A DNA stretch of 64,000 nucleotides, from assembly GCA_965112155.1 (NCBI GenBank), contig OZ218098.1; one strand, written 5' to 3'. The translations under genes were made by a program, and so were the position numbers. The stretch comes from Podarcis liolepis. Its lineage: Eukaryota. Each line of letters begins with the position of its first letter. The stretch's first letter is position 1. Below are positions 710-57,848 of this stretch, piece by piece. The notes under the pieces are model-generated. The model was not told where the DNA came from. It ran no database searches and was given only the letters and a program-made list of their open reading frames with translations.

Positions 710-825
710 GCCGTGATTCAGTCTGAACAGCGTCTCCTGATTTAGATAACAATTGAGACCAATGATCCTGTTCACCAAATCCCCATATAACTTCACCCAG
801 CATCTGAATATAATACCATAAAGAA

Positions 826-13725: not shown

Positions 13726-13801
13726 CTACCTCTCCCCTAACATCTGCAGGGTAACATAGTAGAGAAAACAATTCATATGCAACTCTGGTAGTGCTCTAGG
13801 T

Positions 13802-33669: not shown

Positions 33670-34597
33670 TGTCAGGGTCTGGGCAGAGGAAGAATGGTGG
33701 AGACCGCCCCCCCCCCCAACCTGACCCTTCCAGAGAAGAAGAAGACAGTTCAGAACTACAACAGGGGTTTGAGGGAGATCACAGCTCAGAGGAAGATGAG
33801 GGAGAAAATTGGGAAATAATGACAGAGGAGGAGGAGGCAGAGCCGGAGCAGCTGGCTGACACGTTATCACTAGAAACCATTCCAAACCCACTATCTCCTA
33901 AAACCTGGCAAGCCTTAAAAGTAGGAGAGCAAAGGACTCAGAAGCGAAGGGCCCTCAGTGCCACCCATAGAAGAGGTGACAAATGAGGAAGTGGGAGAGA
34001 AGGGGAGGGGACTGCCTCTCCTGGTATGTCCCACGGAGGACCTTACGGTCTTCAAATAAAAGCATCTTGGAGGTCCCGGGCCACAGGAAGGTTAGGCTGG
34101 CCTCAACCAGAGTGAGGGCTTTTTCAGCTGTGGCCCTGATCTGGTGGAAATCTCTGTCACAAGAGACTAGGGCCCTGAAGGACTTGACATCTTTCCACAG
34201 GTCCTGCAAGACAGAGCTGTTCCACCAGGCCTTTGGCCAAGGCACTGTCTGACCCCCTCCTTTGGTAATCCTCATAGAACTCTAGTCCAATGGTTGCCAT
34301 TAATTTGATTCAGAATTGATTTTAGAATGAATTGATTTTAGAATGTATTTCAATTAATTGATTGTGATTTTATGTAAACTGTGTTATTTACTGTTGATAG
34401 CCGCTCTGAGCCCGGCTTCGGCTGGGGAGGGCGGGATATAAATAAATAAATAAATCATTATTATTATTATTCCAAGAGGCTGCATTCCCAAGCCTCTCTC
34501 TGTAAATATTGAATAAAAGCAGATGGTAAGGACTTTTCCTTGTCTTATCCATTCCTGGAAACCTGCCATGGGTGGCTGGTTCCTCTGCTGCCTGACA
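33670..34597 (+). mobile_element. Gypsy-type solo LTR interrupted by L2
   Basis: TGTCAGG...CCTGACA; perfect 5-bp TSD gccat (33665-33669, 34598-34602); AATAAA near 34512. Confidence 0.88.
34007..34470 (+). mobile_element. Young L2 3' end nested in the LTR
   Basis: DCLSWYVPRRTLRSSNKSILEVP...RAFSAVALIWW...KTELFHQAF; (AATA)n(ATT)n tail. Confidence 0.9.
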
Positions 34598-34874
34598 GCC
34601 ATGCACATATCAGGGTTGTGCTCAGAGGTCTGTTGCCTCATGCATGCACTTATTATTTCCACCACTGAGCATGTGTGGCATTGAGCATGTGAACTGGCTC
34701 TTTCTTTCAAATGCAGTTTAGAACTGAAGTGCAATGACATGCAGAGACATTTTCAACCCGGTTTGATGTGTGCACAAAGTTTTCGTTCTTGTTTTAAACT
34801 GGCTTCAGTGATGAAGTAAAATATTCGCGATGAAAACTAAACCCTTTCTCCCTCTTTGTGTGTACTCGCATCTG

Positions 34875-35032
34875 CAGTGGCGTAGCGTGGGGGGTGCAGG
34901 GGGGGGCGGCCGCACCGGGCGCAACATCTGGGGGGGGGCACGTGGAAGAGACTCGAGTGCTAAAATCCACGGGTTAGGGGGCGCAAATTACTTGCCTTGC
35001 CCCGGGTGCTGACAACCCACGCTACGCCACTG
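34875..35032. mobile_element. Young hAT MITE
   Basis: 17-bp perfect TIR CAGTGGCGTAGCGTGGG; perfect TSD cgcatctg. Confidence 0.93.
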
Positions 35033-35340
35033 CGCATCTGATCTCTTAATGCTTTCTAGATCCTCTTGGCTTACAGGCACATGAAATCAAAAGCAACTTT
35101 GCTTTTATCTTGCTGGTCTTGCTTTGGGTAATACACAAGCAGTAGCAAAGGCCAGTGTCGAGAAGCACCTCTAAAATAAAATTTAAAAACCTAACCAAGT
35201 ACAAGAACACTTTCTACTGCTTCTGAAGTCCGATCCCCTGGTAGCTGAATGCTGCAAGCCGATTGCCTCTCTCTGGCATTTCCTCCTTATCTAATGGAAA
35301 GAACAGGCATCAATAAATAGCTGTGTCAATCAAAATTTTG

Positions 35341-35342
<2 letters not shown>

Positions 35343-35387
<45 letters not shown>
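35343..35387. repeat. (AC)n microsatellite
   Basis: Direct reading. Confidence 0.97.
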
Positions 35388-35390
<3 letters not shown>

Positions 35391-36651
35391 CACTGCGTAA
35401 AAGTGGAAGTAAATATTTTTGAACAATAGAGCTTTCCCCCCCGGATGAACCTAGTTATCTTCCTCAGCTTGGAATGGGAAGTGTTTCTTACCTATTGCCC
35501 TTCAGAAAGATTCTCTTGGACTTTAAGTGCAAGGAGGATTTGTTTTTGTTTGGTTTGGTTTTGATTGGCACCCAAGTGCCTCCGAGCTGCCCCAGTTCTC
35601 TGCAAGCTGTGAAAAGCCGAGGGAAGCCAACTGAATCAGCCTATAACCTTAAGCTGCTGTGGGACACGCTCTCAATGAGCAGGGGTATTCATTGGAATAA
35701 CTCTCCAAGCATTGCAATAATAATCTCACTGAGCCTGGTTGTCCGCTTCTGATGGCTACAAGGTTCACAAAGGCCCCAAGGTTTTGTGATGAGGATAGAG
35801 AGATGGAATCATCTCTGAGTGTATCTCATTGGGGTGAAAAGAAAATATTTTATTTTATTTTAACAGCTCAATTCTCCAAACAGTGCTTTAAAACAAAAAC
35901 AAAAACAAAAAAACAATTTTTTGAAGAGCAATTGAAGAGCAATACATTAGCCAACATAGCCACAACATTTATTTATTTGATTTATTTCATAAAATTTAAA
36001 TACTGCTTGACTGTGAAACACACAAACACACAAACTTCAAAGTGGTTTTACACATTTCACTTGCTTATTTCAGAGTTAACTTTTCAGAGTTACAAAAGAG
36101 CATATTCATTGAAAGTATAGCCCATGCAGCAAACTTGCATCACCTTCACCAACATCTCATAAATGTGGTCAAACATATAATATCACCGTATAAATTGTAT
36201 AAATCAAGTCTAGCAGACATTTACCCTCCTTTTATAGTTATCATGTAACAGATATTGTTAGCAAGAATTAGAAACAACTTGCCTGTTGAAGGCCACAACA
36301 GTGGCCTCCAAGGAGCAGAGGTGAGGTCTGGGCTATGTGGGTGTACTAGTGGAAGTGCCAGACGGGCTGTTCCAGTGTGCCTGTACCGCCTTGGCTTCAC
36401 TGCCATTTTGGCTTTCCCATTCTGGCTATGCAGCAGCAATACTGTTGCCCAGAAGCTATTGTTGGGGCTTACCCACCCCAGTGAGCTATTCTTGGAGTCA
36501 GTCTCACTGTATAAATATAAAACTGAGCCTATCAGGCTTTAAGGACTTCTTTTATAGCCAATATATGGCATAAATAGGAATAATGTCCCCAATAAATCAT
36601 CAAAATTAGGGTCAGAGTGGTCCATATTTGCATAGCCACACTTAAAGCAAA

Positions 36652-37001
36652 GGGACGCGGGTGGCGCTGTGGATTAAACCACAGAGCCTAGGGCTTGCCG
36701 ATCAGAAGGTCGGCGGTTCGATTCCCTGTGACGGGGTGAGCTCCCGTTGCTCAGTCCCTGCTCCTGCCAACCTAACAGTTCAAAAGCACGTCAAAGTGCA
36801 AGTAGATAAATAGGTACCGCTCCGGTGGGAAGGTAAATGGTGTTTCCGTGTGCTGGTCTGGTTCACCAGAAGTGGCTTAGTCATGCTGGCCACATGATCC
36901 GGAAGCTGTATGCCTGCTCCCTCGGCCAATAAAGCAAGATGAGCGCCGCAACCCCAGAGTCGGCCACAACTGGAGCTAATGGTCAGGGGTCTCTTTACCT
37001 T
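36652..37001 (+). mobile_element. Sauria SINE, full length
   Basis: Typical head and tail; 11-bp TSD acttaaagcaa (36640-36650, 37002-37012). Confidence 0.95.
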
Positions 37002-37687
37002 ACTTAAAGCAATATCTGTGCTTTGTGTTAATTCACTCCTGAATAGGTGATACCTGATGACATTTACATCATGAGGCCAGTTGAAATCTGGCTGTTGTTA
37101 ACAAGGGCCTGTTAATCCACATCATGAAGTTGGAATATTCTCTATCTCCAAGTAGCAAAGCAAAACGGCAAGTGGGTTTAAAGGGACTGTATGCCCTATT
37201 TTGGACTTTATATATCTGAAGATCTTTTGCCAGTATTCAGTTGTCTTTGGACATGACCATCATATATGTATGTTTGTTCCTATATTGCCACAGCACTTCC
37301 AACATTTATTGGGATGCTTACTGTTGATATGGTATCATTGCTTTAAAAGTGATTTCCCTGATATTGGTGGGTGTTGAGGAAAGAGACGATGAATTCCATA
37401 TATCTTTGGATTTCTTCCTCTTTCCATTTCATTTCATATGATGGATGAGTATCCCAGTAGCACAAACTCAAAAGTTTTTACAGAAATGAAGCAGCAGCTT
37501 TGAAGTCAGTGTGTCTACAAGCTATTACACTATCAAAACTCATAAGGCTCCTGCAGACCTGGGCAATCATTCCCTTTCCTAGATAATGCACAATAAATAG
37601 TTTATAGAGTGGTTGTGGTATGCAATGACTACAGTGTTTGTACAACAGGATGATGTGTGTTATGACAGCAGAATGCACAGGAAGTTA

Positions 37688-38011
37688 TACCTGAAGGAGC
37701 GTCTCCACCCCCATCGTTCTGCCCGGACACTGAGGTCCAGTGCCGAGGGCCTTCTGGTGGTTCCCTCATTGCGAGAAGCAAAGCTACAGGGAACCAGGCA
37801 GAGGGCCTTCTCCATAGTGGCACCCACCCTGTGGAACGCCCTCCCATCAGATGTCAAAGAGATAAACAACTACCTGACATTCAGAAGACATCTTAAGGCA
37901 GCCCTGTTCAGGGAAGTTTTTAATGCGTGACATCTTAGTTTATTTTTGGTCTTTGTGAAAGCCACCCAGAGTGGCTGGGGAAACCCAGCCAGACGGGCGG
38001 GGTACAAATAA

Positions 38012-38064
<53 letters not shown>
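37688..38064 (+). mobile_element. L2 3' end
   Basis: YLKERLHPHRSARTLRSSAEGLLVVP...RAFSIVAPTLWNALP...FRRHLKAALFREVF; (ATT)n tail. Confidence 0.92.
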
Positions 38065-38065
<1 letters not shown>

Positions 38066-39064
38066 GTACAAATACTGCTCCTGTAGGCATGCATGAGGCT
38101 GTGCGGTTAAGGAATTTAACAGTGTGCGCTTGTGCACATATGTGTGTGCATACAACACATCAGAAAAGGCAAATGGGTCACACATACATCCATGAAAAAA
38201 ATGGATGCGTTAGAAGGGAATAAATGTGAACACTGATAAAAGACTTGTGCTACCTTTGAAGCCTTATATTATCGTTAATTATCTCTGAGATTCACTTGAA
38301 TATCTGGATTGCACCTGACAGGCTGCAAATTTACATCAAAGTTTTTTTGAAGATGAAATGAAGAATCCAGGTCTTTCTGTCCAAGGTGCCATGCCTGCCC
38401 CCAACTTGTCAGGATGAAGAGATATGGTTCACAGTTGAACGGAGACAATTTATATGACAGGAAATCCAAAGTCAAATGTCACTGTCACTCTATATAAATA
38501 TTCAGCAAGTGTGCAGTCCCTCATAGGCAAGCTGTTGTTTTCTATTTTGGGGGCTGGGTTAGCTTCATATCTCTTAATAAAAACAACCTAGAAGGGAAGC
38601 TGGATTAATGTTTCCAAAGGGCTCATTATGACACTTCCACATTATTTCCCCAGGTAGGAATGCAGAAGTGTTGTTGTTTTTTAAATTAAAAAATGATAAA
38701 GTAAGCCATGGATTAAATGGTCATCAGGAGATGTTTTAAATTGCTGTTGTGAAAACTGTCTAGAAGCATGAAATTTCATAATCCTCCTAACTTCCAGTTT
38801 AAGGAGGCTGTTCCCAAAGCCACTGAACCAATGTTCAGTCTTACTTCTGGGTCAAAGGTGATGATGCAAAATGGTGATATTGCAGAAACAGTTACTGGAA
38901 ATTGGTGTGACATGTCATCATACAGAATGATTTCTTTGTCTCAGTCTGCTATTTTAGTTGTGTTTCCTGTATTGCAGGGGGTTGGAGTAGATAACCATTG
39001 TGGTTCCTTCCAACTATACAGTTCTGTGATTTTCACATACATAGAAGGGAGGACAAAGGAAATA

Positions 39065-39289
39065 CAGTGGTCCCTTGGTTTTCGAGCATCTTGGAAGCTG
39101 AACGTTTCGGTTTTCAAACTCTGAAAACCCAGAAGTAAATGTGTCCGTTTTTGAACGCGCCTTAGAAGTCAAGCGGCTTCTGCTGTGTTTACATGATATT
39201 TTGTTCAGTTTTTTGCAGACTGTCCTTTGCGCCTCAGTTTTTGAACAGTCTTTCAGAACAGATTACGTTTGAAAACTGAGGTACCACTG
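39065..39289. mobile_element. Tc1/mariner-type MITE (different interior)
   Basis: TA|cagtggtcccttggttttc...gaaaactgaggtaccactg|TA. Confidence 0.85.
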
Positions 39290-40113
39290 TACTAAGAAGC
39301 AGTAGACATAAGTCTGCAACTGTCCCCCACCCAGTTCATTAAAGCTTCTTATCCCCTGCAGCTGTTCTTCTGAAATTTAACATACTACTTTCCTAGGGGT
39401 CCTTCTTGACGTGTGCCATTTTCATACATAAAAGTAGTTCCCAAAAAACCACCCCAAACTAAATCATGTGGCTGGTATACAAGCTTGCTTAAGAAACATG
39501 CATTACCTCAGTGTGAGCTGTGCAATCTTGCACTATTGCAGAATTTGGGATAGTTTCATCTTATCTCCTCAATCCATACATTGCTGTTGGAGGCGCTATC
39601 AGTTCAGAGAGGCATTAGGCTGAATTTCAACTAGAAGAGACTCTTCAGCACTTGGACAGCTCCCTGTATTTTGCACATCGCTTGCCTCCTTCAAAGCCTC
39701 ACGGCAACGCTGGTTACACTTTGATGTACTGCGTGTGTTAGCATATGTGGAGAACCTTTCCAGCTACAAACAGGGGGCTTTGGGGAGGTGAAAGTTTCGC
39801 TTCTTGCTGCCACTGGTCACTATTATCTCTCTCAAGATGTCAGAGAGGGCCAGAAGCATTGCCTGAACCTCTGATTGGCTTTGTAATTATGCCACACAGC
39901 CAATGATATTTGGGTAACTGATGATGTCAAACACCATAACAGAGTTAGAACAGCATTCCCTACCCTCACTCTGGCATTCTGTGGGCCATAATAGAGACAA
40001 AATGATACCAAGTAGCAGAAGGGAGTGTGCTAACTACCAATTGTGAGTAGGGAAGAACCTTCACCTCCTGTTCACAGCCTTATTAGTTTATTTCAATGAT
40101 TTCTACCCCACGT

Positions 40114-40492
40114 AAAGGTAAAGAGACCCCTGACAGTTAAGTCCAGTTGCAAACCACTCTGGGGTTGTGGCGCTCATCTTGGTTTATAGGCTGAGGGAGC
40201 CAGCGTTTGTCCGCAGACAGTTTTTCCGGGTCATGTGGCCAGCATGACTAAGCTGCTTCTGGCACAAGGGAACACCGACACCAGAGCAGCGCATGAAAAT
40301 GCCGTTTACCTTCCTGCCAGAGTGGTACCTACTAATCTACTTGCACTTTTGGGCGTGCTTTCAAACTGCTAGGTTGGCAGGAGCTGGGACCGAGTAACAG
40401 GAGCTCACCCCGTCACGGGGATTCCAACCGCCGACCTTTTGATCAGCAAGCCCAATCCTCAGTGGTTTAGACCACAGCGCCACCCGCGTCCC
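40114..40492 (-). mobile_element. Sauria SINE
   Basis: Reverse-complement head and tail; TSD tctaccccacgt/tctacctcacat (10/12). Confidence 0.92.
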
Positions 40493-41798
40493 TCTACCTC
40501 ACATACGCACTCCAAAAGGCTCTCAAGCATGGGCGCCTGCAGTGCATTTTCCCAGTATAGTTGCTTTATAATCAGAATAGCATGCTTCAGTTTCCTGACC
40601 CTTTCAAAAACCTTGGCTTAATAGGGTGTTGTTGTTGTTTTAAAAAAATTATTCAAAACAATCCTATATAATCCTTCATTAAAAATTCCAGAACAGTTCA
40701 CTACAATATAAACACTTTCTCAGTAAAATCAGTATGTTAAGATATAGACTACCAATGGCTTCTAATCATGATGGCTACATGAATACCTGTTACTGTGGAC
40801 CATGAGCGGGAGAAGGTTGTTACACTCATGTCATACTTATTACTTCCCCATAGGCATCTCGCTGCCCACTGTGACAGCAGAATGCTGGACTAGGCAGCCT
40901 TTGGTTTGATCCAGCAGGGCTCTTCTTATTTAGAAGTTTCTGAAACACCTTCAGTATTAGCTCCACATAGATGCCATGCAGAATCCCACCCTGGAGTCAC
41001 TTACCACAGCGTGAATAATTGAGTCTAGGTCTAGCTCATCCGATGGTGTTGGTAGACCACTCCCTCCTGGGCTAGAACACTGGATCTAGCACCCATAAGT
41101 TGAAAACCTGCTGTTTTCAGTGGAGTGATACCCCATATAAAATAGGGTATATACAGTATCCCCAATCAAAATAGGTTAAATTTTCCAATCCCAGTATGAA
41201 TATTCATGTCAGTCTTGCCCAGTTCTTCCTTTTAGACATTTTTATGGGCAATGTTAAGGTTGGATACCATATTATCTGTTGGTTTCTAGTTTTTTCTTTT
41301 CTTTTTTAGAACAGTTGGGTTGTTGTTTGAAATAGTATACTTTATTGTACATTTAGCTGTTCAATCAGCAAGAGGTGTTTATCCCCTTCTGAATCTACTT
41401 TTGATTTGGGTTAGATGTGTTTGCTTTTTGCTATAACGTAAGAGGCATCTTTGATAAACCTTCAATTGAAACATGTCTCAGAAGTGAAAATACACATTCT
41501 TTAATGTAGAAGATAAAGGTCAAAAGAGGGGGGGATCCCAATTTCTTAGGTGAATTGCACATCCAAAGGGCAGAGTATAGAGAAATTTAATTTTAAAATG
41601 TTTCAGGATGAAAGCTGGTATTTAAAAACGAATAAATACCCTGCATTTTTATGTCACACAGATGTGGGTACCAGGAAAATCTGTAAAAACAGAGGTATAG
41701 AAATAATGCATTAGACTTTAGCCCTATTGAAGTGTTCTAACTCTTCATGTGATGATGGAGAGTGGGGATGAGCAAGATTCTATATCACACAGTGTACC

Positions 41799-42434
41799 TG
41801 TGATGGCCTGGGATTCAGACTCGAATGCTGAACCTGAGGGATCCCAGCCTGCACAAGATTCCCCGCCTCCCAAACCAGCTGAGCTGGGGTTGGGGCATGA
41901 GCCTGAAGGGTCCTCACCTGTGCTGGATCCTCAGGTGCAGGCATCAGCTGAGTCTGCTCTGGCTCCTGAGGTGATGGAGGACCCATTGCCTGCAGGTGCT
42001 CCACTCTCAGCCCCATCAGGGGAAGCTGAGGTTACCTCTGGGTCCGGTAACCCTCCAGCCTCTCCTGAGCTGCAGAGGTTCAGGGCAGAGAGGTGGAGGG
42101 AACTAAGTTCCCGCAGGAGGAGTGCTGGCCTCCAGGCCAGGAAAGGCGAGTCACCAGAGGATCGGGGCCACCCTATGCCTCGGGCAGATAAAAGCTAGCC
42201 AGCCCCAGTCCCAAGTTGCGGGAGGAACATTGTTGGTGGCTAGTTCCTGCCTGAACTCTTTCCTGCCTGAGCTCTTGACCTGCCCTGGCTCCCTGCTTGC
42301 AAGCCTGTTCCTAACTTCACCCGACTCCCTGCCCTGCACCCAGCTTCAGCTACTACGGACTGCCTCCACGTTGCACCTTTGACCACGGACCGGACTTGGA
42401 CCTTGCCTCTCGGGTAACCCACAGGACCAGCACA
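41799..42434 (+). mobile_element. Gypsy-type solo LTR with intact internal ORF
   Basis: TGTG...CACA; perfect TSD gtacc (41794-41798, 42435-42439); open frame 41800-42198; gataaaagc TATA-like box at the ORF end. Confidence 0.9.
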
Positions 42435-42694
42435 GTACCCACATAAGCTGAAATGTCTCTCTACTGCAGTCCATGGGAACTGGGGAAACAGCTTCAATGG
42501 GGAAACAGAGCTAATGTGTTCCTTGTCACTGTCCCTCATTGAAGGGTGGATTGTGCAGCACTTTATAAGGCTACTGCTCAGTTCTGCTGAGATCTATGCT
42601 GCAATGGCTTCCAGACACAAGATAGAGCAGTTGTGGATGAATCCTGGCCTAGATTCCTCCACTTGACTAGAGTTCCCATGGTATTACCCTAGAA

Positions 42695-42832
42695 CAGGAA
42701 TGGGGAACCTTTTTCTCTCCAGATGTTGCTGAACAACAATGCCCATTATCCTTGGCCATTGGCCATGCTTGCTTGGGCTGATGAGAGTTGTAGTTTAGCA
42801 ACATCTAAGGGCCAAAAGGTTCCTCACACCTG
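42695..42832. mobile_element. Palindromic hAT-type MITE
   Basis: caggaatggggaacc...ggttcctcacacctg; flanks ccctagaa/ccctgaag. Confidence 0.75.
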
Positions 42833-43658
42833 CCCTGAAGTCTTCCCATACATGGGCAAGGCCTTTACTGTATGTAAACTGACATGCTTCAGTCTGAACA
42901 TCACATTGCAGCGTAGCTAGCAAGTTGTGTTGGGGAGAGCAATGTTAGTTTCAGGTTTCTCTACTGAAATGTTTTTGATGCAAGCAGCTTCTGCCCTTTC
43001 TTTGTCACACAAAGAACATGAGAAAAGCTCCTTTAGCCCAGAATCCTGTTCCTGTGGTGCCCAGCCAGATGCCTTAGGGAAGCTCACAAGCAGGTCATGG
43101 AGGCTATCATCCTGCCCTACTCATGACTGCTCCTTAGCAGCTGGTAATTTAGAGGCATGGATCACCTCCAAAGCTGGAAGGAGCATAGAGCTGTCATCAT
43201 GACTAGTATCCATTGATATCTTCTATGAATTTGTCTTATCTCCTTTTACAGCCCTTTAAGCTTGTGGTCACTGCATCTCCTGACAGCAAATTCTGTAAGT
43301 TAATTACAAAAGGACTTGATACAAGTATGATAATTTTATAGCATTTTGTTATTTAGAGAAATTATTTGCCACATTTCCCCTACCAAAGTGGTTTACATAT
43401 AAAACATAGTTCAATGCAATGCAATCAATATTATCCAATTATTAAAACCAGATCAGAATGGGAAGGGGGAAGGAGGGGATACAGAGTCAATACTGGAACA
43501 TCAGAACAGGTCAGGAAATTGCCCGCATAAATGAGAACATTTTTAACTTCTGATGGAAACCATCCAGTGTTGGAGATTGCCTGATCTCTCCCAGAATGTC
43601 ATTCTACTTCATAGCTTCACAGTACCCTTAGGCTGGAGGAGTTGACTTGCCCAAGGCC

Positions 43659-43990
43659 ATAGTGAGAGGGTGGGTGGAGGTATTACTCAGAAGGGTGGTG
43701 GGAATGGGTGATTGGCTGATAGGTGTGGTAAACCTGTTGACGACTGTTAACAACTGCAATTGGTCTTACAGGAAAAAGCAAGGGGTGAGATGGCTATCTC
43801 GGTATATATAAGGGTCTGTTGACTTCTGATTCAGTGTATCTGAAGAAGTGTGCATGCACACAAAAGCTCATACCAAGAACTAACTTAGTTGGTCTCTAAG
43901 GTGCTACTGGAAGGAATTTTTTATATCTTTTATTTTATTTGTTATGTTTTGTTTAGACTACGGCAGACCAACATGGCTACTTACCTGTAA
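43659..43990 (+). mobile_element. Penelope-like element 3' fragment with inverted 5' part
   Basis: 43803-43990 shares the pseudo-LTR tctgaagaagtgtgcatgcacac...aaggtgctactgg and tail with 51655-51777; 43659-43797 appears antisense. Confidence 0.75.
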
Positions 43991-44909: not shown

Positions 44910-45065
44910 CAGAAGCAGCCTTATGCTGAGTCAGACTATTGGACCATCTAGCTCAGTATTGTCTATGTTAACTGACACTGGCTCTCCAGAATTTCAGGCA
45001 GGGATCTCTCCTCCCTCTGCCTGGAGCTGGATTGAACCTGGGAGCAGCAGCATGCAGTGCAGATC
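44910..45065 (-). mobile_element. Squam2-like SINE
   Basis: gagtcagactattggaccatctagctcagtattgtcta and attgaacctggga (B-box complement). Confidence 0.65.
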
Positions 45066-45533: not shown

Positions 45534-48451
45534 AGTCAATGTTTTAGGGGTTCAGCTAATGAAAAACAGTGACAGATGGTGGGTGGTGCATCTATCTAGT
45601 GGACTCTGTGTACAGATCATCTGTTGGCTGTATGCAAAAGCTCAGCATGGTATGTTGGCAACGCACACATTTGCCTTTGAATGATGGTACATTTAGCATG
45701 GAAGCTTGATGCAATCAAGTCAGAGTACTCATCCATGTGAGCCGAGTGAGCATTGTACTGCAGTGATCTTCAGCATCAAATATTGATACTTAGATGTAAC
45801 CCAGCTGCCCTTAAATTATTCAGAACTAACAAGCAGCAAACAGAGAAGGAGAAAAGTCAGACACCTTTCGAAATGCCATTTAAATTTGCTTGTGAGGTAT
45901 AAAAGTTGAGAGAAACACAATACTGACTGCTAACTTTTCTTTATCCCCAAAATGAATCATAGTTAAGTATATACCAGTAAATATAATCATAGTTATTTCT
46001 AAAACTCTTTAAAGCAAGAATTTGCTGAAGTGTCAGTGGGTTCTCTGGGGAAGGAAGGAAGATAGAAAGAGGGAGAGGAAGAGAGATTTTATTGGTTTGG
46101 CTTCTGAAGAACTGCAGGCTTCTTATTTCACACCACTGATTGACATTCCCAGGAAACTGGACAAGTATGTGCAGGGAATTTACTAAATGAATATTACAGA
46201 TTGTCATTTTCATGAAAACTTCACCTGAAATTTGACTTGTATCTAAAATTCATATCACACACCCCTCTAATCTATTGGATTTAGGACCAAACCAGACATG
46301 TCTGCTATGGGATCTGGCACTATGTCGTGGTTTTTCTTTAACAAATAGCAGCCCAGGGGTGGGGGACATGGTATAGGAACAGGGCATAGGTTTTATACCC
46401 ACTGTGGTCCTGATCAGAATCCCTCTTTCATGCCTACTGTTTGTAATTGGGGGAGAGCTGGTAAGAAAACAGTGTGTGGTCATTTTTGCATTCAGCTAGC
46501 AGTACAGGAGTGCCATGTTATTATGGGCAAATTCCAATTTAGAATTGCCCACCTTGCACCATCAGCCAAATGGGGAAGTGACCACATGGTTGGCTAGCTG
46601 CATTATCATATCTGAAGACAAGTTCAGTGTTATACTGTATTACTCCCCACTCTGGCTTGTTCTTCTGGTACTGAATCAAGTATGCCAGGCTACTTTGCTA
46701 GGTGAAATTACTGGGTGGGGGGGGGGAGAAAGCGCCAGGCACAGAGTGCAAAACAGCTTTCATGGCTGGTTTCTGGAGTTACTAGTACTCAGAGATGAAT
46801 AGGATGTTGCATCTCCACAGATGACTAAAGTCCAATCCTAAAACAGGATCAAAATTTGACACTTGATGAGTCACTAAAGACTGTTTCAAATTTGTTTAGG
46901 AGCCCCTAGTTATTCTCTGATCATAATAGTAAGGAATGCCTTCATATCTAGTCTTCAAATCTGAGATTACACAATGTACAAGGATTTACTCTGTATGTGA
47001 AGCAGAAGGAGAATGTTTCCTTGTTGGAATGCAGTTAAATCCATGGCAGTCCAATCAACAGAGATATTGCCATGTTATGTTTCAATGTGTTCTGTACCAA
47101 ATCTGCAAAATGCTGATAGTTTCATTGGAGAAGAGCCTTCCCTTCAAATCACAGCTTCCTTCGGTTCGATAATTTGGAAAAGTTTTATCCTGAGTCTCCA
47201 TAAGAGCCCAAAGCTATTTGAGAAGTTTCTTTTAGCTTTGCCAAGTCTGTGCTCCCGAAAGCCAGGCCATTCATTCCGTGGGATTTGGGGGTTTGGGTTG
47301 GGGGTTTTTGTGTGTGCTGCAAATCACTTCCACAGCTGCACAGCAGGATTGGTTAACCATGACGAAGACAAAGTTCCTTAAGAGGCTTACTGTGACTTGG
47401 GATGGCTTCCTCTAAGTCAATTTATACTGGAAGTCATTGCTGCTTTGGGCCTTGGGAGGAAGAGATATCAAAAAAGTGGGGGGGGGGACCTTAAATCTTA
47501 ATGAGAGAAAGTCATGTCTGAGTCGACACATCTTAAGCTTAGCATATTTCCAAAGATTACATTACCCATTTGTCTCAGAAATACCTTTATTCTCCTTGTT
47601 CTGGATTTTGACTTAATTGGAAAATGAAATGTGCACCTTTATCCCGGCTAAACAATGATAGATTGCAAGGAAGTTTCATGCTGCTCAAGACAGCAAAGGT
47701 TAGCTCGCATCTCCAGACACATTGCTCTATTAACTTGAATTGACAAGCAAACGGTGTTTGGTGCTTTTGCGCAACTTGTTCATGGGGCTGAGCTCGGTCT
47801 CTGTGCTGAAATCCAGTTGCAGAAGAGGGAGGCGATCACAGCAAACAGTGACAAGTGCACAAAAGGTGCTCCTGTAACAACTCATCATGGCCAACTACCC
47901 CATGCAACTTCAAATAAGCAGGCTCCTCTGTGTTTGAATAGCCATAATCAGATGGGGGCGTGGATTAAATCCAGCCCCAGGCTTCCCTTCCTGAAAAACT
48001 AATTGGAGCTCTTTCCAACATTCTGACCACAACTACACATCTGCAGTCTCAGAAGTTGGATTGGGCAAGGAACTGTATATGCATACAATTCTGAATGTGT
48101 TTTTCTTCATTCAGCTAGGGATATGTTTACAGTAGGTTGCGTCTGTACAGATATCTGTTCTGCCTGCCTAACCCAATAGAGGTCAGTTGAGGGTAGCATT
48201 GCCCAGGTTGTGGCCAGGACACATGTGATCACCAGCACACAGATGCACACTATGCACACTATGCCAACTCTGGTTGGAGTGGGGCCAGAAGCCTGTGTCA
48301 TCCAGTGACTCACATTTTGTCTCATGATTCTGAGTGTGAGTTCAGATATGTCTACTTGGATCAGGGTACATGTATCAAATGAGTGATGCCCAGTTGAAAT
48401 ATGTGCTGAACAGTCAAGAAAAAATGTTAACAATTCAGTCAAAACGATGTA

Positions 48452-48679
48452 CAGTGGAACCTCGGGTTCCGATATGTACAGGAGGCATGTTTGCAACCCG
48501 CGGTGCACGCGTGGGTCACGATTCGACGCTTCTGCACATGCACAAAGTGTGATTTAGTGCTTCTGTGCATGTGCGAGTGCCAAAACCTGGAAGTAACCCT
48601 TTCTGGTACTTCTGGGTTTGGCACGGTCCATAACCCGAAAACGCGTAACCTGAAGCCTCTGTAACCTGAGGTACCACTG
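48452..48679. mobile_element. Tc1/mariner-type MITE
   Basis: TA|cagtggaacctcgggtt...aacctgaggtaccactg|TA; interior is the inverse of 60860-61111. Confidence 0.88.
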
Positions 48680-50231
48680 TAATTGCTACCCAATAAGAGG
48701 GCAAGGCTAATGCATGTTTCAACACAAAGCATACTGTTGAGGACCATGCAGTTATTCTACAGATATGGTTATAAGAATAATAGAACAAATTAGAAATCAT
48801 TGTGTATCAAGGTATGGTGACATCCTTGTAACTCCAAGATCATGTAAAATAATAGCAATACAATTCCATAAGGTGATGGATCTAGATGTTTTCCTAACAG
48901 GTGAGTTCACAAAGGGTACTGAGTGATTATTGTTTTTATTTTGCTTGGTACATGCAGTATATATATTATAGTTGCACTGGTTGCTGATATGCCAAATAAT
49001 TTTATTAATTTAAAGTAGAGCTCTAAAACTGTGGAAATTTATTTTTCAACCATTGAGTGGGTGGGTATGAAATGAAATCCTCCCAAAGATAATTGGACAT
49101 CTGAGAAGGAGATAAGTTGCCACTTATCTTATTTACCCTCATCATTTGGCCACAGGCTTTCTCTACAGCTTCCTAATGAATGTTTTTTTCTGGAGTGCCT
49201 TGGGGGCAATGTCACATTCCAAGTCATTCCAGGAAGTGTGGCCAAAGGGAAATGGTGGAAGCCTCCCCCCATAGCTTCCTACCAGTTGTGTCTCCTGACA
49301 ACTCCCAGTAAGGTAAACCCTTCCAGAAAATTTCAGAGAAGTTTCCCCTTCCCCAAGGAAGCAGCAGAAAGTTACATCCCATTTTCATAGGGAAATAATA
49401 TTCTGGGGAAATTTGGGGGCAGGACTTTGGCCCAACTTGGTTTAAAGCAGACCATTATTCTATTAAAGGGTTATATTCTTGCAGAGTCACTTTGTGGAGA
49501 CATGTGTCTCAGAACTACTGTGATTAAAGTGTTTATTATGTCTCTTTGGAAAGAGGCTATCCCAGCCATATGCATGTATGAGGTCAGTACTCTCTAATTA
49601 TTATATTTGGGATATATCATCAGTGAACGAAACTAATTTTTTTCATATTTTCATAGCCTAGCCCCACCCCACTAGATCCCTAAAAATTGATTTGAGTCCC
49701 TCATCCCTCTGAGTTCATCCTTGCAAGGGCCTGCATTACTCTGTGAGAAACAACAAGAAAATTTTATTTCTTGTGGCTTTGTTTGGACACTGCTCCACTG
49801 CAGCTATGTTTGCTTCCACCAAGTGCCAAAAACACACGGTGGTTCCAACTGTGTGGTGGAAGCTTTCCACCTGTCCTGTGAGGCAGCGCAGGTGGAGGTT
49901 GGCTTCTTTGTCCAGTAATTGCCATCAACAGTGCTCAACTGACCTTTGTCACTGCAGCTTACTGGTCTAGGCAAAACTCATTCATGTACTCCATTTTCCA
50001 ATTTTCAAAGCATTCTTAACTATTCAAGGGAGATGAGTAAAAGAAATAAAAAGCAGCCAAAGACAAAATAAATATATTCAGTCTAGGGACTGACAGAGCA
50101 GTCTGTTTCCAGTCTTTCTCAGTTTTGCATATGTTCATTCATTAATCCATGGCCTCCCGTTTCTACATTACTGGATGAAGTTTTAAAATGTACCCCAAAA
50201 AATCATATTTAAAGGTAAATATTGCACCCCA

Positions 50232-50462
50232 GTGGGCTGGATTCAGCTAACCTGTTCCGCTAGTGGAAGTGAGCACAAGGACTCCCACTTGCAAAATGGG
50301 GCTTTCCCCCTCTCCTCCGCCTGCCCCCCACTGTGCCTCCCTAAAATCCACTCTGAAAGGTGGGGAGGGCTGAGAGAACAGCATGCAGGGGGGAGGGGAA
50401 ACCAATCCTTCATGCTTGCATTGATGGAATGATCTCCTTGGTGCTACATTGAATTCCACCCA
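50232..50462. mobile_element. Harbinger-like MITE
   Basis: gggctggattcagc...ttgaattccaccc imperfect GGG..CCC TIRs; three homologous copies in the window. Confidence 0.55.
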
Positions 50463-51190
50463 ATGTACACATTTCTGAACATATGTAAACCCAAAATACA
50501 TTTTTAAACACATCACAGTGTGTGTGCTTTGAGCTGATAACTGTATTGCAAAATCTGGAGAAGTGTGAAATATGACGGATAATTAATGACATTCCAATCT
50601 GTGCATTAGTCCAGGAGGTGCAAATTAGGCCAGTTTGCTTTAAAATGCTGACTGAAATGAAAGTTCGCCTTTGTCCCTCATTCTACTTAACTTTACTCTA
50701 GTACGATTCTAAAGTAGATTCAAGAACTCACAAACAAAGCACCATCTGTTTACAGGCAGGATTGCACAGGGCTCATTTGGTGGTTCAAGAGGGAACAAGT
50801 GAAGACAACAACATATTAAATCCACCCCATTGATGTGCTGTATGCATTCCGGTGGAACATGAGTGGCAATTTAGCAGGTGGTTAGCAGGATTTGGTGTGC
50901 CCATCACATATGCTGCGGTGTCTAGGAGACAGACCAATTGTGGTGCTCATCACTGGTCAGGAAAAGAAGAGGAGGTGAGAAACTCTGGGTGCCATTTTCC
51001 CTCTGTGTTCTTGGGAAAGTGCAGGATCTACGTGGCTTGTTCTCTTCCTTATGATGGAGGAAGGAGTTTTGGTGGGTGGGATAGGAGTTTATCCATAAGA
51101 GATTCATCTTCTTCACAGTCCTACTGTCTTTCTTTTAGTGGGCCTCTGAGCTCCATTCCCCAGGTCATATCCCTGAATCTTCCTTTATAG

Positions 51191-51326
51191 CAGGTGTGAG
51201 GAATGTTTGGCCCTCCTGATGTTGTTGAACTACAACTCCCACCATCCCTGGGTATTGGCCATGCTTGTTAGGGCTAATGGAGCTTGTAGTTCAACAACAT
51301 TGTACCACTAAGGTTCCTCTCACCTG
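51191..51326. mobile_element. Palindromic hAT-type MITE
   Basis: caggtgtgagg...cctctcacctg; TSD ctttatag/ctttatac. Confidence 0.8.
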
Positions 51327-51562
51327 CTTTATACTGTATTATCCAGTCTCCTGTCTCCCTGTATCTAGGTCTCTCATTTTCTCCCTTGGGTCCCTCTGAT
51401 CCTTTTCCTGACCAATCTTATATATCTATCGCTTGGTTTCAGTGGTGAAGAGTGAACTCCTTTATCTGTCTGTCTCAGGACAAACTCATAAACAAAGTGT
51501 ACTGCCCTAGATGGGAATTGTTAAAAAACCCACATACCTTAAGTAATATAAGAACCTTAGAT

Positions 51563-51777
51563 AAAATAAAAAATTCCTTCCAGTAGCACCTTAAAGACCA
51601 ACTAAGTTAGTTCTTGGTATGAGCTTTCATGTGCATGCACACTTCTTCAGGTATCTGAAGAAGTGTGCATGCACACGAAAGCTCATACCAAGAACTAACT
51701 TAGTTGGTCTTTAAGGTGCTACTGGAAGGAATTTTTTATTTTGACTATGGCAGACCAACACGGCTACCTATCTGTAA
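51563..51777 (+). mobile_element. Penelope-like inverted pseudo-LTR pair with 3' tail
   Basis: 88-bp inverted arms (51563-51650, 51655-51742; 1 mismatch), 35-nt unpaired tail, 14-bp TSD cttagataaaataa (51556-51569, 51778-51791). Confidence 0.88.
51650..51689 (+). ncRNA. Minimal type I hammerhead ribozyme motif (Penelope-associated)
   Basis: GGUAU-CUGAAGA-A-GUGUGC(AU)GCACAC-GAAA-GC-UC^AUACC: helix I GGUAU/AUACC, helix II, conserved core, loopless palindromic helix III AGCU. Confidence 0.72.
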
Positions 51778-52465
51778 CTTAGATAAAATAACAACCTTAA
51801 ATAAAAGAGCAACTACCATCACCACTAGTACATCAGCAGCACACTAGTTGGAGTTCTGTAGTTAGTGGTACGGTGTCACAAGCTAAATTTAGTGTGGTAG
51901 AGCATGCACTGCAATGGTTATAAGAATAGGTTCAGGGACTGCTGCTGGCGTGCTGTTCGTTACTTGTTTCCGTACTTGAAGAATGAGGTCCTAGTAAAGA
52001 GAGTTCAAAGGAAAGCCACACAAATCATCCAAAGACTAGAAAATAGGCAATCTGACAGTGATGGGAGCTTGTTGAGAAATATGAAGGGTTAGTGTGAAGT
52101 GCACTGTAGACGAGACACCCAGTGCATGGATTCATGCACATCAAAAGCCATTTCATAAAAGTGTACCTCTCAGAACTAGGGGAATTATCACCTGAACAGG
52201 CTATTTTTTTTCGCTGCTGCTGCTAGTCTGTTAACATTCAATAATCAGGCATTAAGGATTCTGGAACCATGCCTGCATTTGCTATTCAGCTGCTATAAAT
52301 CTAGGGAACCCTCACCCAACTTCATCAGCTAGGCAGCCTTATGTTTTATTGGGATTACCCTCTTCTTGGGTCTCAGCCAATCTGCTAAATGCTTTCCGTA
52401 TTGGAACATGCCTCTGTGAATTTTCAGGAAGAACACTCTAAAGAAAGAACTAGGAATGTGTGCGC

Positions 52466-52602
52466 CAGGGCTTTTTCCCCAGCCTGAACTCATGGGAACT
52501 CAGTTCTGGCACTTCTCAGGTGGGCACCATCGCCATTATAAGAGAACAAGGGAGGTGTTCATCGTGAGTTCTGTCACCTCTTTTTCTAGAAAACTAGAAC
52601 TG
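52466..52602. mobile_element. hAT MITE
   Basis: cagggcttttt...aaaactagaactg; TSD gtgtgcgc/gtgtgtgt. Confidence 0.65.
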
Positions 52603-52699
52603 GTGTGTGTGCAAGTTCAAATAAATACTGAATCAGCCTGCCAAAGGTTTCCACAGGGGAATTCTGTCACCTAGTAGGAGGGGACAAGATGACAAATGT

Positions 52700-53625
52700 A
52701 TCCATAAGGGCATAACAAGAGTCCTGCTGGCTCAGGCCAAACGCCCTTCTAGTGCAGCACAGTGGACAACCAGAAACCAGAAAGTAGGACATGGACACAA
52801 CAGCATCCTCCTCACTTGTGCTTTGCAACAACTGGTATTTGAAGGCATGAAGAAGCCTCTGATCCTGGGGGTAGTACACCACTAGCATGGCTAGTAAGGT
52901 AAGGTAATGCTAAAGGACCCCTGGACTATGGGGTGTGGCGCTTCAGGCCAAGGGAGCTGGCGTTTGTCCATAGGCAGCTTTCTGGGTCACTTCTGGCACA
53001 ACGACACCATGACAGAAGCCAGAGTGCACGGAAATGATATTTACCTTCCTACTGCAGCAGTACCTATTTATCTACTTGCACTGGTATGCTTTTGAACTGC
53101 TAGGTTGGCAGGAGCTGGGACCGAGCAACGAGAGCTCACCCCGTTGCACAGATTCGAACCGCTGACCTTCCAATTGGCAAGCCCGAGAGGCTCAGTGGTT
53201 TAGACCATAACACCTTTCCTCCCTGAGTTTGTCTATACCCTTTTAAAGCCATCCAAGTTGGTGGTGATGGCTACCACTTGTGGGAGCGAATTTCATAGTC
53301 TAATATTATATATGGAATTTTTATCCCACCCTTCCTTCCAAAGGAGCCCCATGCCTCCTTTTTTCTGACCTGAATCTTTCGACATTAAGCTTCACTGGAT
53401 GACCCTAAGTTCAAGTATTATGGGTGGAGAAAAGAGCCGCCCCCCTCTCTCTCTCCTCACAACATGCATACGTTTATAACTACCATATCCCACCCCACTT
53501 TTTTCTAAACTAAAAAGCCCTTATGGCCTTCCCTGATAGGTGAGATGTTCTGCATGTCTGATCATTTGGTTGCCCTCTTCTAAACCTTTCCCAGTGCTGT
53601 GATATACTTTTTGTGGTGCAGTGAG
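52700..53625 (-). mobile_element. Old CR1 3' region split by a Sauria SINE
   Basis: Reverse 3' UTR (cataacaagagtcctgctgg...) continues after the SINE as cttttaaagccatccaagttggtgg...ttgccctcttctaaacctttccc. Confidence 0.7.
52896..53213 (-). mobile_element. Sauria SINE, internally deleted
   Basis: aaggtaaggtaa tail complement; gattcgaaccgctgacc and cagtggtttagacca head complement. Confidence 0.85.
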
Positions 53626-54631
53626 CAGAAAAGCTATGTGACATGATAGCTCAGTGAAACTTCTGTGTCTGGAAGGGAAATACAGCTGAAGATCAGAAGC
53701 TGGTCATCATAAATATATGATAGGGTGGCTATATTTTAACCCTGACACCAAGGAGTGTTCCTTCTCATACCATTTTAATGTTCCTGCACTGAGCTTGACA
53801 GGCACAAGAGTGAATTCGTGGTTTCTCAGCTTTGAGATCGTAAATGCTATGATGTACTACTGCAACACTGAACAAAATACGCACATGCAGGAAGCTATGG
53901 TCTATACTAATCCAATGTGGTGGTATTACTGCACACTGAAAATGCACACATAACATCATCTAGGGCATAGGCTGCATTAAATTATTCCGACAGCAATGAA
54001 CTAGGTATGTACACACAGAAGCAGGTAGGCGTCTCTTCATTCTGTGGATTTCTCATAGAAAAAAGTTGCCGGAAAATGAACCTGTCAGTGGAATTCTATC
54101 AGTAGGTTTGGGCCACCACCTTTTTCTAAAACTGGGTACCTCAAGTCACCTCTGAAAAGTGCCACTTCTCCCTCTAGCATGGAAGAAATAGCTAAGCTTG
54201 TGAAAGATAAGGAGTGACCTATTTGGAAAGGCTACCAGTCCTGGGCAAGAAGGCTCTTCTCCTAGCCCATAATTGCTATGGGTGGGTGGGGGAGAATGCA
54301 ATAATTCCGCCAGGGGCAGATTTAAAGCAGCACGACCGGTTCCCCTACACTGGGTGCTGAGCTGAGAGGGACCACCAGTCGTTGCAACTATGACATAATG
54401 CATGCATAGTACGGAAGGCAAGAGGTGGTGTGGGGTTTTCAGGTCGAATTTAGCCTCGTACAGGGCACCGCTGAAATTTGAAAGACCAATGTCCACCCTG
54501 AATCCCCTCCCCATCACAGTGTTGAGCTAAGAAGTGAGTGTCCCACCCCAGCACTGTGATATGTATGTGTGCAACATGTGTGCACTTTATATAGAGCAGG
54601 GGGTGGGCAAATCGGTCTATTTTGGTTTGTC

Positions 54632-54850
54632 CGGATGGAATTCAACTAACCTGTTTCCCAAGCAGAAGCTGGGGTAAGGTCTTATGGTGCAACAGGGCTG
54701 CACCCCTGATCTTCCCCCATATCCATTATGGAGGGCCAGGAGACACACTAGAGCAGCACACAGGGAGGAGAGGGGAGATAATTCCTTCAGGCAAGCAGAA
54801 ACGCTTGCATTGACAGAACAATCTTTTTAGTGCCATGTTGAACTCCACCC
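54632..54850. mobile_element. Harbinger-like MITE
   Basis: ggatggaattcaac...gttgaactccaccc TIRs. Confidence 0.6.
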
Positions 54851-55029
54851 TCTCTTTCTTTTCCACTCTTAACTTCAGTCCTCCGCATTTCCATCTCTTT
54901 CCCTCCCTCCCTCCCTCCCTCTGTGTGTGTGTGTGTGTAAATTCATCATGAATTTAGTGCCAATTGCATTTTTGCCTCATATACACATTTTTGCAAGCTG
55001 GAATGCTTTTGCAATGCTGGAAACAAGAG

Positions 55030-55160
55030 GCAGGGAGATTGCTCTGGTGCTGGAGTCCTGCTTGCATGTTCCTCACAGGCATCTGGTTGGCCACTGTGAG
55101 AATAGGATATTGGACTAGATGGGCCATTGGCCTGATCCAGCAGGCTCCTCTTACATTATT
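55030..55160 (+). mobile_element. Old CR1 3' UTR fragment
   Basis: ggcatctggttggccactgtgagaataggatattggactagatgggccattggcctgatccagcaggctc. Confidence 0.65.
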
Positions 55161-55243
55161 ATGCTCCATTTCCCCTAATGTAATGAATTTCTCTGTGTTG
55201 TTTTCACTAATATGTGTATATTTATGCACATGTTACTCCAGTA

Positions 55244-55469
55244 CAGTGGTACCTCTGGTTACAAACATAATTCGTTCTGGAGGCCCGTTCTTAACCTGAA
55301 ACGGTTCTTAACCTGAGGTACCACTTTAGCTAATGGGGCCTCCCGCTGCCGCTGCGCCGCCGCCATGCGATTTCTGTTCTCATCCTGAAGCAAAGTTCTT
55401 AACTCAAGGTGATATTTTTGGGTTAGTGGAGTCTGTAACCTGAAGCGTCTGTAACCCGAGGTACCACTG
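55244..55469. mobile_element. Tc1/mariner-type MITE
   Basis: TA|cagtggtacctctggttac...gtaacccgaggtaccactg|TA. Confidence 0.9.
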
Positions 55470-56451
55470 TATATGTATATGTGTACACATTACTTGGCTT
55501 TGCAAAATTTGGAAAAGTGCAAATTTTGAAGGATGGTTGAGTATTGTTTTGGGAAGTCGGAATGAAAAAGGTTTGCCTTTAAAGGCAGACTGACCTAAAT
55601 TTCTCCCACACCCCTAATGGTGAGTGTGTGCATGTGTGTGTGTACATGCATGAATAAGTGTGTGTGACCACTTTAGCTATGCCCACCACTAGCAACCCTT
55701 AGCGTGGCTCTCAGGTTGAACAAGGCTTAGCCATCCCTAGTTTAGAAGACATTGTCTGAATGTTTCTTTCCTCTTAGTGTCTTATTAAACATTTATCACT
55801 TGCCCAACATGAAATAACAGCCAGCTTTAAACCAAAGTACATCAAGCTCCTTGATAGCAAGCCATCAAGGGAAGAAACTTGATTGTCGGCTGGTTAGCTA
55901 GTTATGGGAGAGATCTAGCTGCTTGGGAACTAAACCCAGGAGGAACAAACAGGAAATGGTTCACTTAAATACCTTGGGAGATCTAAGAAAATTGTTATTA
56001 GCAGAGCTCTCCCTACTTTAGGCATGAATAAATAACTTGCTAATAGGATGAAGGCATCCCTGCTAGGTGGTTTTTTAAAAGTGCATTTTCTTATATATTC
56101 TTGTGAGAATTCATTTCCCTTAAGTACATGATTACCGACACAATGGAACAATGTTATGAGAATCATGGTCAGTTACCCCTACTGCTTACAGGAAGAGAGC
56201 ATAGGATTATAATGAAAAAGAATGCCTGAGTCCGATAAGATGAAGCAAATTAGCTTAGCCAGGGACCACTTGGCATAAAGTGAGTCTAATAAACCTATAA
56301 TTTCTAAAATGTTCATATTACACAGAGTACAAATGGATTCCAGAGTGATTCCAAGCTATTGCACCTTAATAGTTGGGCAGAAGTGGCTTTCTTCCTTTTT
56401 TTTTTGGTAAAAACAACCCTGTAACCTTTTGGTGAAGGACAGGCTGTAAAT

Positions 56452-56510
56452 TGAATGAATGAATGAATGAATGAATGAATGAATAAGCAAGCAAGCAAGC
56501 AAGCAAGCAA
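56452..56510. repeat. Compound (TGAA)n(AAGC)n microsatellite
   Basis: Direct reading. Confidence 0.93.
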
Positions 56511-57281
56511 ACAAACAGAAAAGAAGGGATTGTGGATCTTTGCTGTAATCAAACGCCATCCCATAAACCCTTTTTCATAATGTACAATCAAGTACAAATA
56601 TTTCATTTTGTCCCAAATGACATTCCATCCCCACCCCACCCCTTTAAGTAAATGAAGGTGGCTGGACTGGGAAATCAGTTTGGTATTTGCTCCTGTAGCA
56701 ATTTAGTGAGTTTCTTGACTTGAATATTCTGATGGGGGAATGACGATTACCACTTCCAAAAGATTTCCCTGCAGCCTACCACCAAACAATATGCTATTTA
56801 CAATATTGGATTAAAACACAAACTTGCTAGAGTTCCATTCCGTTTTCCTACAACTGAGGGCCACTTAATGTGAACAATTTATTCCTGGGACTGCTAATGG
56901 TGGGGATGAAGACTTCCCATACACCCAGCAGGGCTGAGTATATTATGGCCCATCCATGGAGTACCACCACATGGAAACAGTTCTCAGTAGCATCCATCCC
57001 TAGGTTTCATTTATTTCATTTCATTTATTTTATTCTGATATTCAGAATTTCTAAGTGACATCAGGTTATTCAGAGTTTAAACCAGCAGCAGGCACATGAT
57101 TATCTCCAGTCTTAGCAATGTAGTCCCACAACACTAAGATCAGAAAACAGCACCCTCTTGCTCTTGGAAAGGAAGTAGGCAGAAACTAATCTGTGATCAC
57201 TGCAATGCTTAGTGCTAAGATCAGAGGTGCTGGATCTCCAACCTTAGCACTTACTGCTTAAATCAGAGATTACAGATCTCT

Positions 57282-57848
57282 TGTCAGCGATTGGCTGGAT
57301 GGTGAGGAGTGGTGGGAGGATCCAGCCAGAGAACTCCCCAGGGAAGCTTCAGAGGAGGAAGGATCAGCATCAGGGAGGGGACAGTGAAGACAGGTCAGAG
57401 GATGAAGCAGGGGCAGAACGGTTGGAAGCTGAACAAGCAACAGGCTTTTATGTGAGAGAAAAACCAGAGGCAGAAAACACTGCAGACACAGGACAGGCAG
57501 CTGAGGAGGAGGAAGGGACAGAGGCTGCAACAACTTTACAAGAGCCTGACAGTTCTCCTACATTAAGGTCCCCTCCTCCCTTGTCTCCAAGAGCATGGAG
57601 GGCCCTGAATGAAGCAAAACAAAGAGCACAGAGAACACAGAGTTTAAGGCTGCTTGGAAAAGATCCAGCCAAGGAGGAGATGTAGAGGGAAGTGGGAAGC
57701 ACAGATTGTCAGTTCTGGAAATGGCTTTACTGGGAGCCAGTCTTGCCTGTAGGTTTCTCTGTTTGTATTCTGTTTCCTTGAATAAATAATTAACTTTCTA
57801 CTTGTCTCTGAGATTCTGTGCTGACCTGCAGCTGAACTAGCCCTGACA
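57282..57848 (+). mobile_element. Gypsy-type solo LTR
   Basis: TGTCAG...CTGACA; TSD tctct/tctcg; AATAAA at 57781; acidic frameshifted ORF. Confidence 0.82.

Follow-up and report, generated by a model that had tools for sequence, protein, structure and literature searches.

In plant chromoviruses of CRM group A, a CR motif that targets the integrase is coded by the 3' LTR (long terminal repeat) and stands in place of a chromodomain, as described in passages of PMC3059260 and PMC3605345. In the current study, we describe elements in which pol likewise extends into the 3' LTR, starting from three solo LTRs in a stretch of 64,000 nucleotides of the lizard Podarcis liolepis (contig OZ218098.1; the whole stretch is hereafter the window). 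These copies, found in a lacertid lizard, are what solo LTRs have left of Ty3/gypsy chromoviruses of the Tf1/sushi type, and their families are named after their positions, i.e., the 33.7-kb (VRDW), 41.8-kb (VMAW lineage) and 57.3-kb (VRDW-related) families. With the Tf1/sushi group (V-clade chromoviruses) the lizard elements share the order gag, protease, reverse transcriptase (RT), RNase H and integrase, a C-terminal chromodomain, a self-priming primer-binding site (PBS), TGT.A..ACA ends and a 5-bp target-site duplication (TSD), but they also code, behind the chromodomain and in about 90% of the U3 region of the LTR, a selected acidic-then-basic tail of 100-130 amino acids. They are not members of CRM, since they keep a canonical chromodomain and add the tail to it, and their PBS is self-priming whereas CRM is primed by tRNA-Met.

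Dual-coding U3 regions also occur in retroviruses, where nef, sag and bet overlap U3 as separate spliced accessory proteins, while the lizard tail is an extension of pol. The end of the tail in one lineage recalls the arginine motifs of chromatin proteins. The HMGN consensus is RRSARLSA, and the motifs RRSARIAT of Dot5 and RRSSRLTS of Dsup bind the acidic patch of the nucleosome, Dot5 requiring all three arginines to do so (in the relevant part of PMC13347269). Like them, the lizard tail combines an RRSARL core with segregated charges and (predicted) disorder, but its motif is a predicted binder, is carried by an integrase and follows the acidic tract, and the window copy lacks the third Arg. 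Viral users of the acidic-patch anchor include foamy virus Gag, LANA and IE1 (listed in a section of PMC9040877), and here too a short arginine anchor would hold a mobile genome on chromatin; those anchors belong to Gag or to proteins of herpesviruses rather than to an integrase, and no LTR codes them. The preliminary description of the window presented the tail as an undescribed system, which is overstated, as the 3' LTR of plant CRM already codes a motif that targets integrase. Among the papers listed in the literature searched (Repbase, GyDB and subscription papers being outside its scope), none was found to describe vertebrate chromoviruses with an acidic tail coded by U3 or with a motif of the HMGN type.

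Continuity of pol with the LTR reading frame

Internal regions were located with a Podarcis protein that joins the tail frame to Gag (150 matches scored, 16 stretches fetched). Fifteen of the 16 stretches contained a full-length element whose two LTRs are 93-100% alike, and one was split by another insertion; the LTRs of these 15 are 66-69% alike to the 41.8-kb LTR of the window over the first 440 nt. Integrase, GPF, chromodomain, polypurine tract (PPT) and LTR base 2 form one stop-free frame in 13 of the 15, adding 109-117 residues and stopping 9-15 nt before a TATA-like box, and in the two exceptions a frameshift lies between the chromodomain and the LTR, upstream of the junction. As U3 ends near nt 390 and the frame stops at nt 329-353, the tail takes up the share of U3 given above. 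The 33.7-kb family showed the same phase in six of eight distinct junctions and a different one in two, counting the tandem array of contig 7 as one and leaving out nine copies with a deleted junction, and of seven VRD-type junctions from further old families five were in phase. These counts bear out the earlier proposal that pol continues beyond the PPT in the phase set by LTR base 2, and the tail, expected to measure roughly 105-135 amino acids, was observed at 100-130.

In older families, acidic Trp-rich tracts begin before the PPT and the basic ends are of the SPR(S/T)RR type, with LTR borders judged by eye. In them the PPT is preceded by the acidic E-E-W-W tract, while in the 33.7-kb and 57.3-kb families this tract is found immediately within the LTR, as if the border of the LTR had shifted relative to the protein between them. 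Fusions of the tail to Gag in two proteins (P0001 and P0002) were interpreted as splices made by the gene predictor from the 5' LTR, because U3 is upstream of the inferred transcription start. Public gene models of the Podarcis type splice the tail frame onto Gag or unrelated host-like sequence, and P0001, P0026, P0048 and P0097 start at the LTR ATG. A search of sequencing runs listed none recorded as RNA that contains the sequence. RNA reads of a related lizard covered the pol end at a mean depth of 1-5 in one of three runs and patchily in the other two, and are uninformative on translation.

Pfam places gag, protease, RVT_1, RNase H, integrase, SH3_Tf2-1 and Chromo in this order on the protein P0003, with no env and with the frame ending in the LTR. 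The chromodomain (PF00385, E 8e-15 at 1371-1418, EYEV..DWKGY) forms the integrase C-terminus and has the Y-W-Y cage of group I; a chromodomain is likewise present upstream of 33.7-kb-family LTRs. The preliminary description overlooked this group I chromodomain just upstream of the tail, owing to which any chromatin contact made by the tail would be the second one. The PBS does not resemble a tRNA site, and in 10 of 12 elements it has a 10-nt complement to the LTR 30 nt after ATAAA; in the remaining two, pairing amounts to 7 nt in one and is absent from one with a partial LTR. A self-priming PBS is a signature of the Tf1/sushi group (PMC6317226 and bioRxiv 2022.12.06.519325, both in part), and domain order, chromodomain and PBS together identify these elements, at the level of sequence, as Tf1/sushi chromoviruses. 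Judging by its reading frames, the young family has two coexisting expression strategies: a single gag-pol frame in 10 of 15 elements, and a 307-aa gag whose frame differs from that of the pol it overlaps, intact in 3 of 15 (one further element with a separate 307-aa gag frame has a broken pol).

The ratio of nonsynonymous to synonymous divergence (dN/dS) was obtained from 86 VMAW-lineage LTRs; the frame stayed open as far as the motif in 79, and the 61 distinct ones used fall into six subfamilies; subfamily pairs were compared after subtracting within-group divergence. Net dN/dS in the pol frame was 0.33-0.56, with a 95% interval below 1 in 7 of 10 pairs (which are not independent), against 0.99-3.35 and 1.12-3.93 when the frame was shifted. 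Inside the frame, net indels amounted to 0, 18 or 30 nt in each of the 16 comparisons, whereas most gaps downstream of it were not divisible by three. Purifying selection acts on the tail, in the pol frame only, and the check set for the claim, in which a dN/dS of about 1 would point to a composition effect, came out in its favor. An artefact of purine-rich composition is also ruled out by the openness of the frame described below. Overall, we consider it nearly certain that U3 of these elements is dual-coding and contributes a selected tail to the integrase.

The same frame was compared across the three families by projecting 29 sequences each on one natural copy per family, a stop being called shared when present in more than half of the copies. 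The base-2 frame was the only forward frame without a shared stop in all three families (0 vs 4 and 6, 0 vs 2 and 7, and 0 vs 3 and 10 in the other forward frames), so that the consensus-type stops that would have spoken against it are absent; one reverse frame of the 57.3-kb family is likewise without a shared stop. Under a dinucleotide model, the chance of an open frame that long is P 0.033, 0.022 and 0.004 for the three families. About 130 codons are open in most of 28 other copies of the 41.8-kb LTR, several 33.7-kb relatives have 97-103 open codons, and one 57.3-kb relative has 134. The peptides and the state of each frame reported earlier, open in LTR 2 and broken in the other two (Table 1), agree with the sequence. 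The tails of the 33.7-kb and 57.3-kb families are alike at the protein level (tblastx E 1e-6; z 3.0-10.0 vs shuffles), and the idea of one shared frame stands to that extent, the 41.8-kb tail sharing the layout only. The opening Val, offered as a common feature, was dropped as evidence because Sushi LTRs start with TGTYANR (stated in a part of PMC3601003) and the residue is thus imposed by the LTR end. Common descent of all three tails is unsupported, as only the 33.7-kb and 57.3-kb tails align.

Anatomy and occurrence of the tail

Residues before a Ser-Pro (SP) dipeptide, which is present in all three families, consist of 17-36% D+E and 0-9% K+R, and complete tails carry 8-10 K+R within the 24-32 residues after it. 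In a putative tether regulated by a cyclin-dependent kinase, phosphorylation of this SP would control binding; the full consensus of such a kinase site is S-P-x-K/R, from which SPEL/SPDL and SPRT depart. A single-sequence fold model (mean pLDDT, the predicted local distance difference test, of 51) shows the tail as disordered except for one confident helix, DLQRLRAERRRELV, just before the motif, and no Pfam domain was found in the tail. RRSARL occurs in 70 of 83 VMAW-lineage LTRs, which are not independent of one another, and its extended form RRSARLKA/QA agrees with the HMGN consensus at seven of eight positions; in the window copy the motif is RRSAGL. Most 57.3-kb copies end in x-x-S-L-R-L (x = R, Q, W or stop). 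The RRSxRL-like end claimed for all three LTRs therefore holds for the 41.8-kb lineage and, in the degenerate form SLRL, at 57.3 kb, and fails for the 33.7-kb family.

A protein search over 1.84 billion representatives gave 150 hits, many with several chromodomains, of which 56 were read and 10 named. The full layout is found in a Rhineura (amphisbaenian) protein, with GDSVMA, an acidic tract, PPSP and RQQKVRQKRGRP, and in a Crotalus (rattlesnake) protein, with an acidic tract and then a basic helix; Naja and Salvator proteins show the acidic start. In the ENA protein P0115 the chromodomain is followed by GDTVM and an acidic Ser/Pro tract, with RRSARL at the end; this protein was alone in carrying RRSARL after the chromodomain among 44 entries with an automatically located chromodomain. 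Nine hits were returned by a profile search, with no further tails among them.

Setting in the window and genome

The three LTRs and their coding remnants are collected in Table 1. Their coordinates and TG..CA ends were as first described, as was their dissimilarity at the DNA level (no significant blastn match among the three, best E 0.089), while an exact 5-bp TSD was recovered for two and a 4/5 match at 57.3 kb. Searches of the 1.57 Gb genome with each LTR gave 2061, 512 and 2359 first-look candidates, the VMAW LTR being among those with more than 2000; for each family 40 candidates were scored and 30 fetched, and none of the 90 fetched copies was preceded by a PPT. The nearest protein matches are from Podarcis lizards. 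The LINE (long interspersed element) insert of LTR 1 is missing from uninterrupted relatives. Solo copies show no codon-position bias within any family, which is expected once an LTR has been inserted, and the window LTRs are dead leftovers that decay neutrally.

Table 1. Positions in the window of the solo LTRs, their U3-coded frames and associated signals.
Feature	Position	Strand	Details
Solo LTR 1 (VRDW, 33.7-kb family)	33670..34597	+	928 bp; TG..CA; TSD GCCAT/GCCAT; LINE fragment inside
U3-coded integrase tail, LTR 1	33671..33986	+	Frame broken at C11 run 33707-33717; SPKTW 33894-33908; stop TGA 33984-33986
Inserted LINE 3' end in LTR 1	34012..34462 (about)	+	Short coding remnant; AATA/ATT repeat tail
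Solo LTR 2 (VMAW lineage, 41.8-kb)	41799..42434	+	TG..CA; TSD GTACC/GTACC
U3-coded integrase tail, LTR 2	41800..42198	+	132 open codons: acidic/Pro/Ser tract, SP, basic helix, RRSAGL
SP, basic helix and HMGN-like motif of LTR 2	42061..42132	+	RRSAGL at 42115-42132
ATAAA TATA-like box (LTR nt 390) and, 30 nt on, PBS-pairing site of full-length relatives	42188..42227	+	U3 end
Solo LTR 3 (VRDW-related, 57.3-kb family)	57282..57848	+	TG..CA; TSD TCTCT/TCTCG (4/5 match)
U3-coded tail, LTR 3	57283..57685	+	Broken near 57372-57377; SPRAW 57584-57598; SLRL remnant 57635-57652

The window lies in a tandem duplication of 60,953 bp (positions 1-3047 vs 60954-64000; around 49.32-49.42 Mb on contig C1), whose copies show no mismatch over 3047 bp in the window, none in two 3.6-kb loci and one 1-nt gap in a third. 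The duplication is either very recent or an assembly artefact, and it doubles all three LTRs. About 18 copies of an old element of the 33.7-kb family are spread over 1 Mb of contig C7 (78.86-79.81 Mb), i.e., a tandem segmental array, and one VRDW-type LTR with identical flanks was seen near the ends of several contigs, which probably have a subtelomeric block in common. Contig C20, possibly a heterochromatic sex chromosome, is strikingly rich in internal regions of both old and young elements. Elsewhere in the window, positions 13800-14800 form a GC-rich island (61% GC, short direct repeats, long stop-free frames) that is likely a promoter CpG island, and a 194-aa open frame at 30541-31125 presumably resembles the final part of a reverse transcriptase from a LINE of the RTE/BovB type.

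Candidate functions of the tail

U3 supplies the last 100-130 residues of the integrase, the genomic RNA presumably being translated through U3, and we propose that this tail, predicted to be disordered, is likely a second chromatin contact behind the chromodomain. The acidic linker would give reach and may also mask the basic end, while the basic helix would bind DNA or importin. In the 41.8-kb lineage, RRSARL would dock on H2A-H2B as an HMGN-type arginine anchor of the acidic patch, in which case the integration complex would grip the methylated H3 tail through the chromodomain and the nucleosome face through the tail; in families without RRSxRL, the basic helix alone would serve. This reading draws on the read-through, the frame-specific selection, the frequency of RRSARL in the 41.8-kb lineage and its match to HMGN, the rarity of RRSx R[LI] among shuffles of the basic end (0.25%), the fold model, the recurrence of the layout in Rhineura and Crotalus and the viral use of the anchor. 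We assign a probability of about 0.5 to the tail of the RRSARL lineage being a chromatin tether that acts through an acidic-patch anchor. Slightly more tentative is the wider suggestion that squamate Sushi U3 could be an HMGN/Dsup-like tether gene for integrase, the first acidic-patch anchor on a retrotransposon integrase, which would form a two-handed grip with the chromodomain, and that families may swap basic ends (RRSARL, SLRL, AT-hook-like RGRP) to alter their hold on chromatin.

Several observations weigh against a tether of this kind. Genome scans found no chromodomain-PPT-LTR junction for the 57.3-kb family (13 and 4 matches, none with an upstream chromodomain), a PPT-pattern scan for a full-length member of the 41.8-kb subfamily of the window itself gave no match, a further PPT-pattern scan gave seven matches, all solo, and read-through for the 41.8-kb LTR was established on relatives 66-71% alike. 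Constraint on the tail is weak beside pol (dN/dS 0.31-0.47, vs 0.06-0.08 in RT and 0.07-0.18 in integrase), and the block from SP to RRSARL is not more constrained than the acidic start (0.37-0.75 vs 0.21-0.25, in a rougher regional split with one misgrouped copy). The 41.8-kb tail has no detectable homology to the 33.7-kb and 57.3-kb tails (z about 0), the count of RRSARL comes from related LTRs, and the shuffle test of the basic end is post hoc. Besides, no RRSxRL motif was found in the 33.7-kb family, which ends in RALSATRRR, nor at the ends in Rhineura (KRGRP..SLRPKR) and Crotalus (a basic helix), and RRSxRL is thus not the common core of these tails. Relatives of the fish and amphibian type run from GGGG(T/S)V into short non-acidic tails, which indicates that a long tail is not required by the group.

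The selected tail might instead provide nuclear import and non-specific DNA binding, as a basic helix or nuclear localization signal (NLS) on an acidic spacer with RRSARL as an interchangeable ending. We regard this as possible but doubtful: SP and the basic helix are indeed common to the three families and Rhineura, the endings vary (RRSARL, SLRL, RALSATRRR, KRGRP), and the long disordered C-terminus of Ty1 integrase, as presented in a portion of PMC8487063, offers a parallel module, yet a plain NLS needs no exact S-A-R-L spacing, which is kept over six subfamilies with dS up to 0.5. The SLRL echo in the 57.3-kb and two further families and the RRSARL end of P0115 also speak for an anchor rather than an arbitrary basic ending. 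It is unlikely, in our view, that the tail is a tolerated extension whose frame selection keeps open and hydrophilic (e.g., avoiding a long 3' untranslated region or a misfolding end), with the motifs being U3 promoter DNA. Such a role would fit a tail dN/dS 4-6 times that of RT, the unalignable tails of different families, a read-through by some residues that is general in vertebrate relatives, and a tail dS below that of pol in the full-length pair L129/L132 (0.14 vs 0.37-0.47), which hints at constraint at the DNA level. However, promoter constraint would not favor the third positions of one frame, and lacertids through to snakes show the charge pattern again although their DNA is not similar.

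A stand-alone product is very improbable, i.e., an HMGN-like acidic/RRSARL protein of 110-130 aa, made instead of or besides the integrase tail from host transcripts that enter solo LTRs. An ATG, with a G at both -3 and +4, occupies nt 5-7 of the VMAW LTR, and the four gene models named above begin there; the candidate matches of this LTR in the genome exceed 2000, and reads of the related lizard enter the LTR at its first base from unrelated flanks in all three runs, with loose ends at 5669-5670. These reads are nevertheless on both strands, antisense exceeding sense, the A of the ATG belongs to the integrase end motif, no ATG is present there in the 33.7-kb and 57.3-kb families, and solo copies decay without codon bias.

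How vertebrate LTR retrotransposons reach chromatin and choose it becomes a question for peptide experiments, given a motif of 6-8 residues with known nucleosome chemistry at the end of an integrase. If the tether through an acidic-patch anchor is true, it would join chromovirus targeting to the tethers of foamy viruses and herpesviruses, in parallel to the plant CR motif. Gene predictors already begin false proteins at the LTR frame, and U3 of these lizard elements would evolve under both protein and promoter constraint, which would matter for the dating of LTRs.

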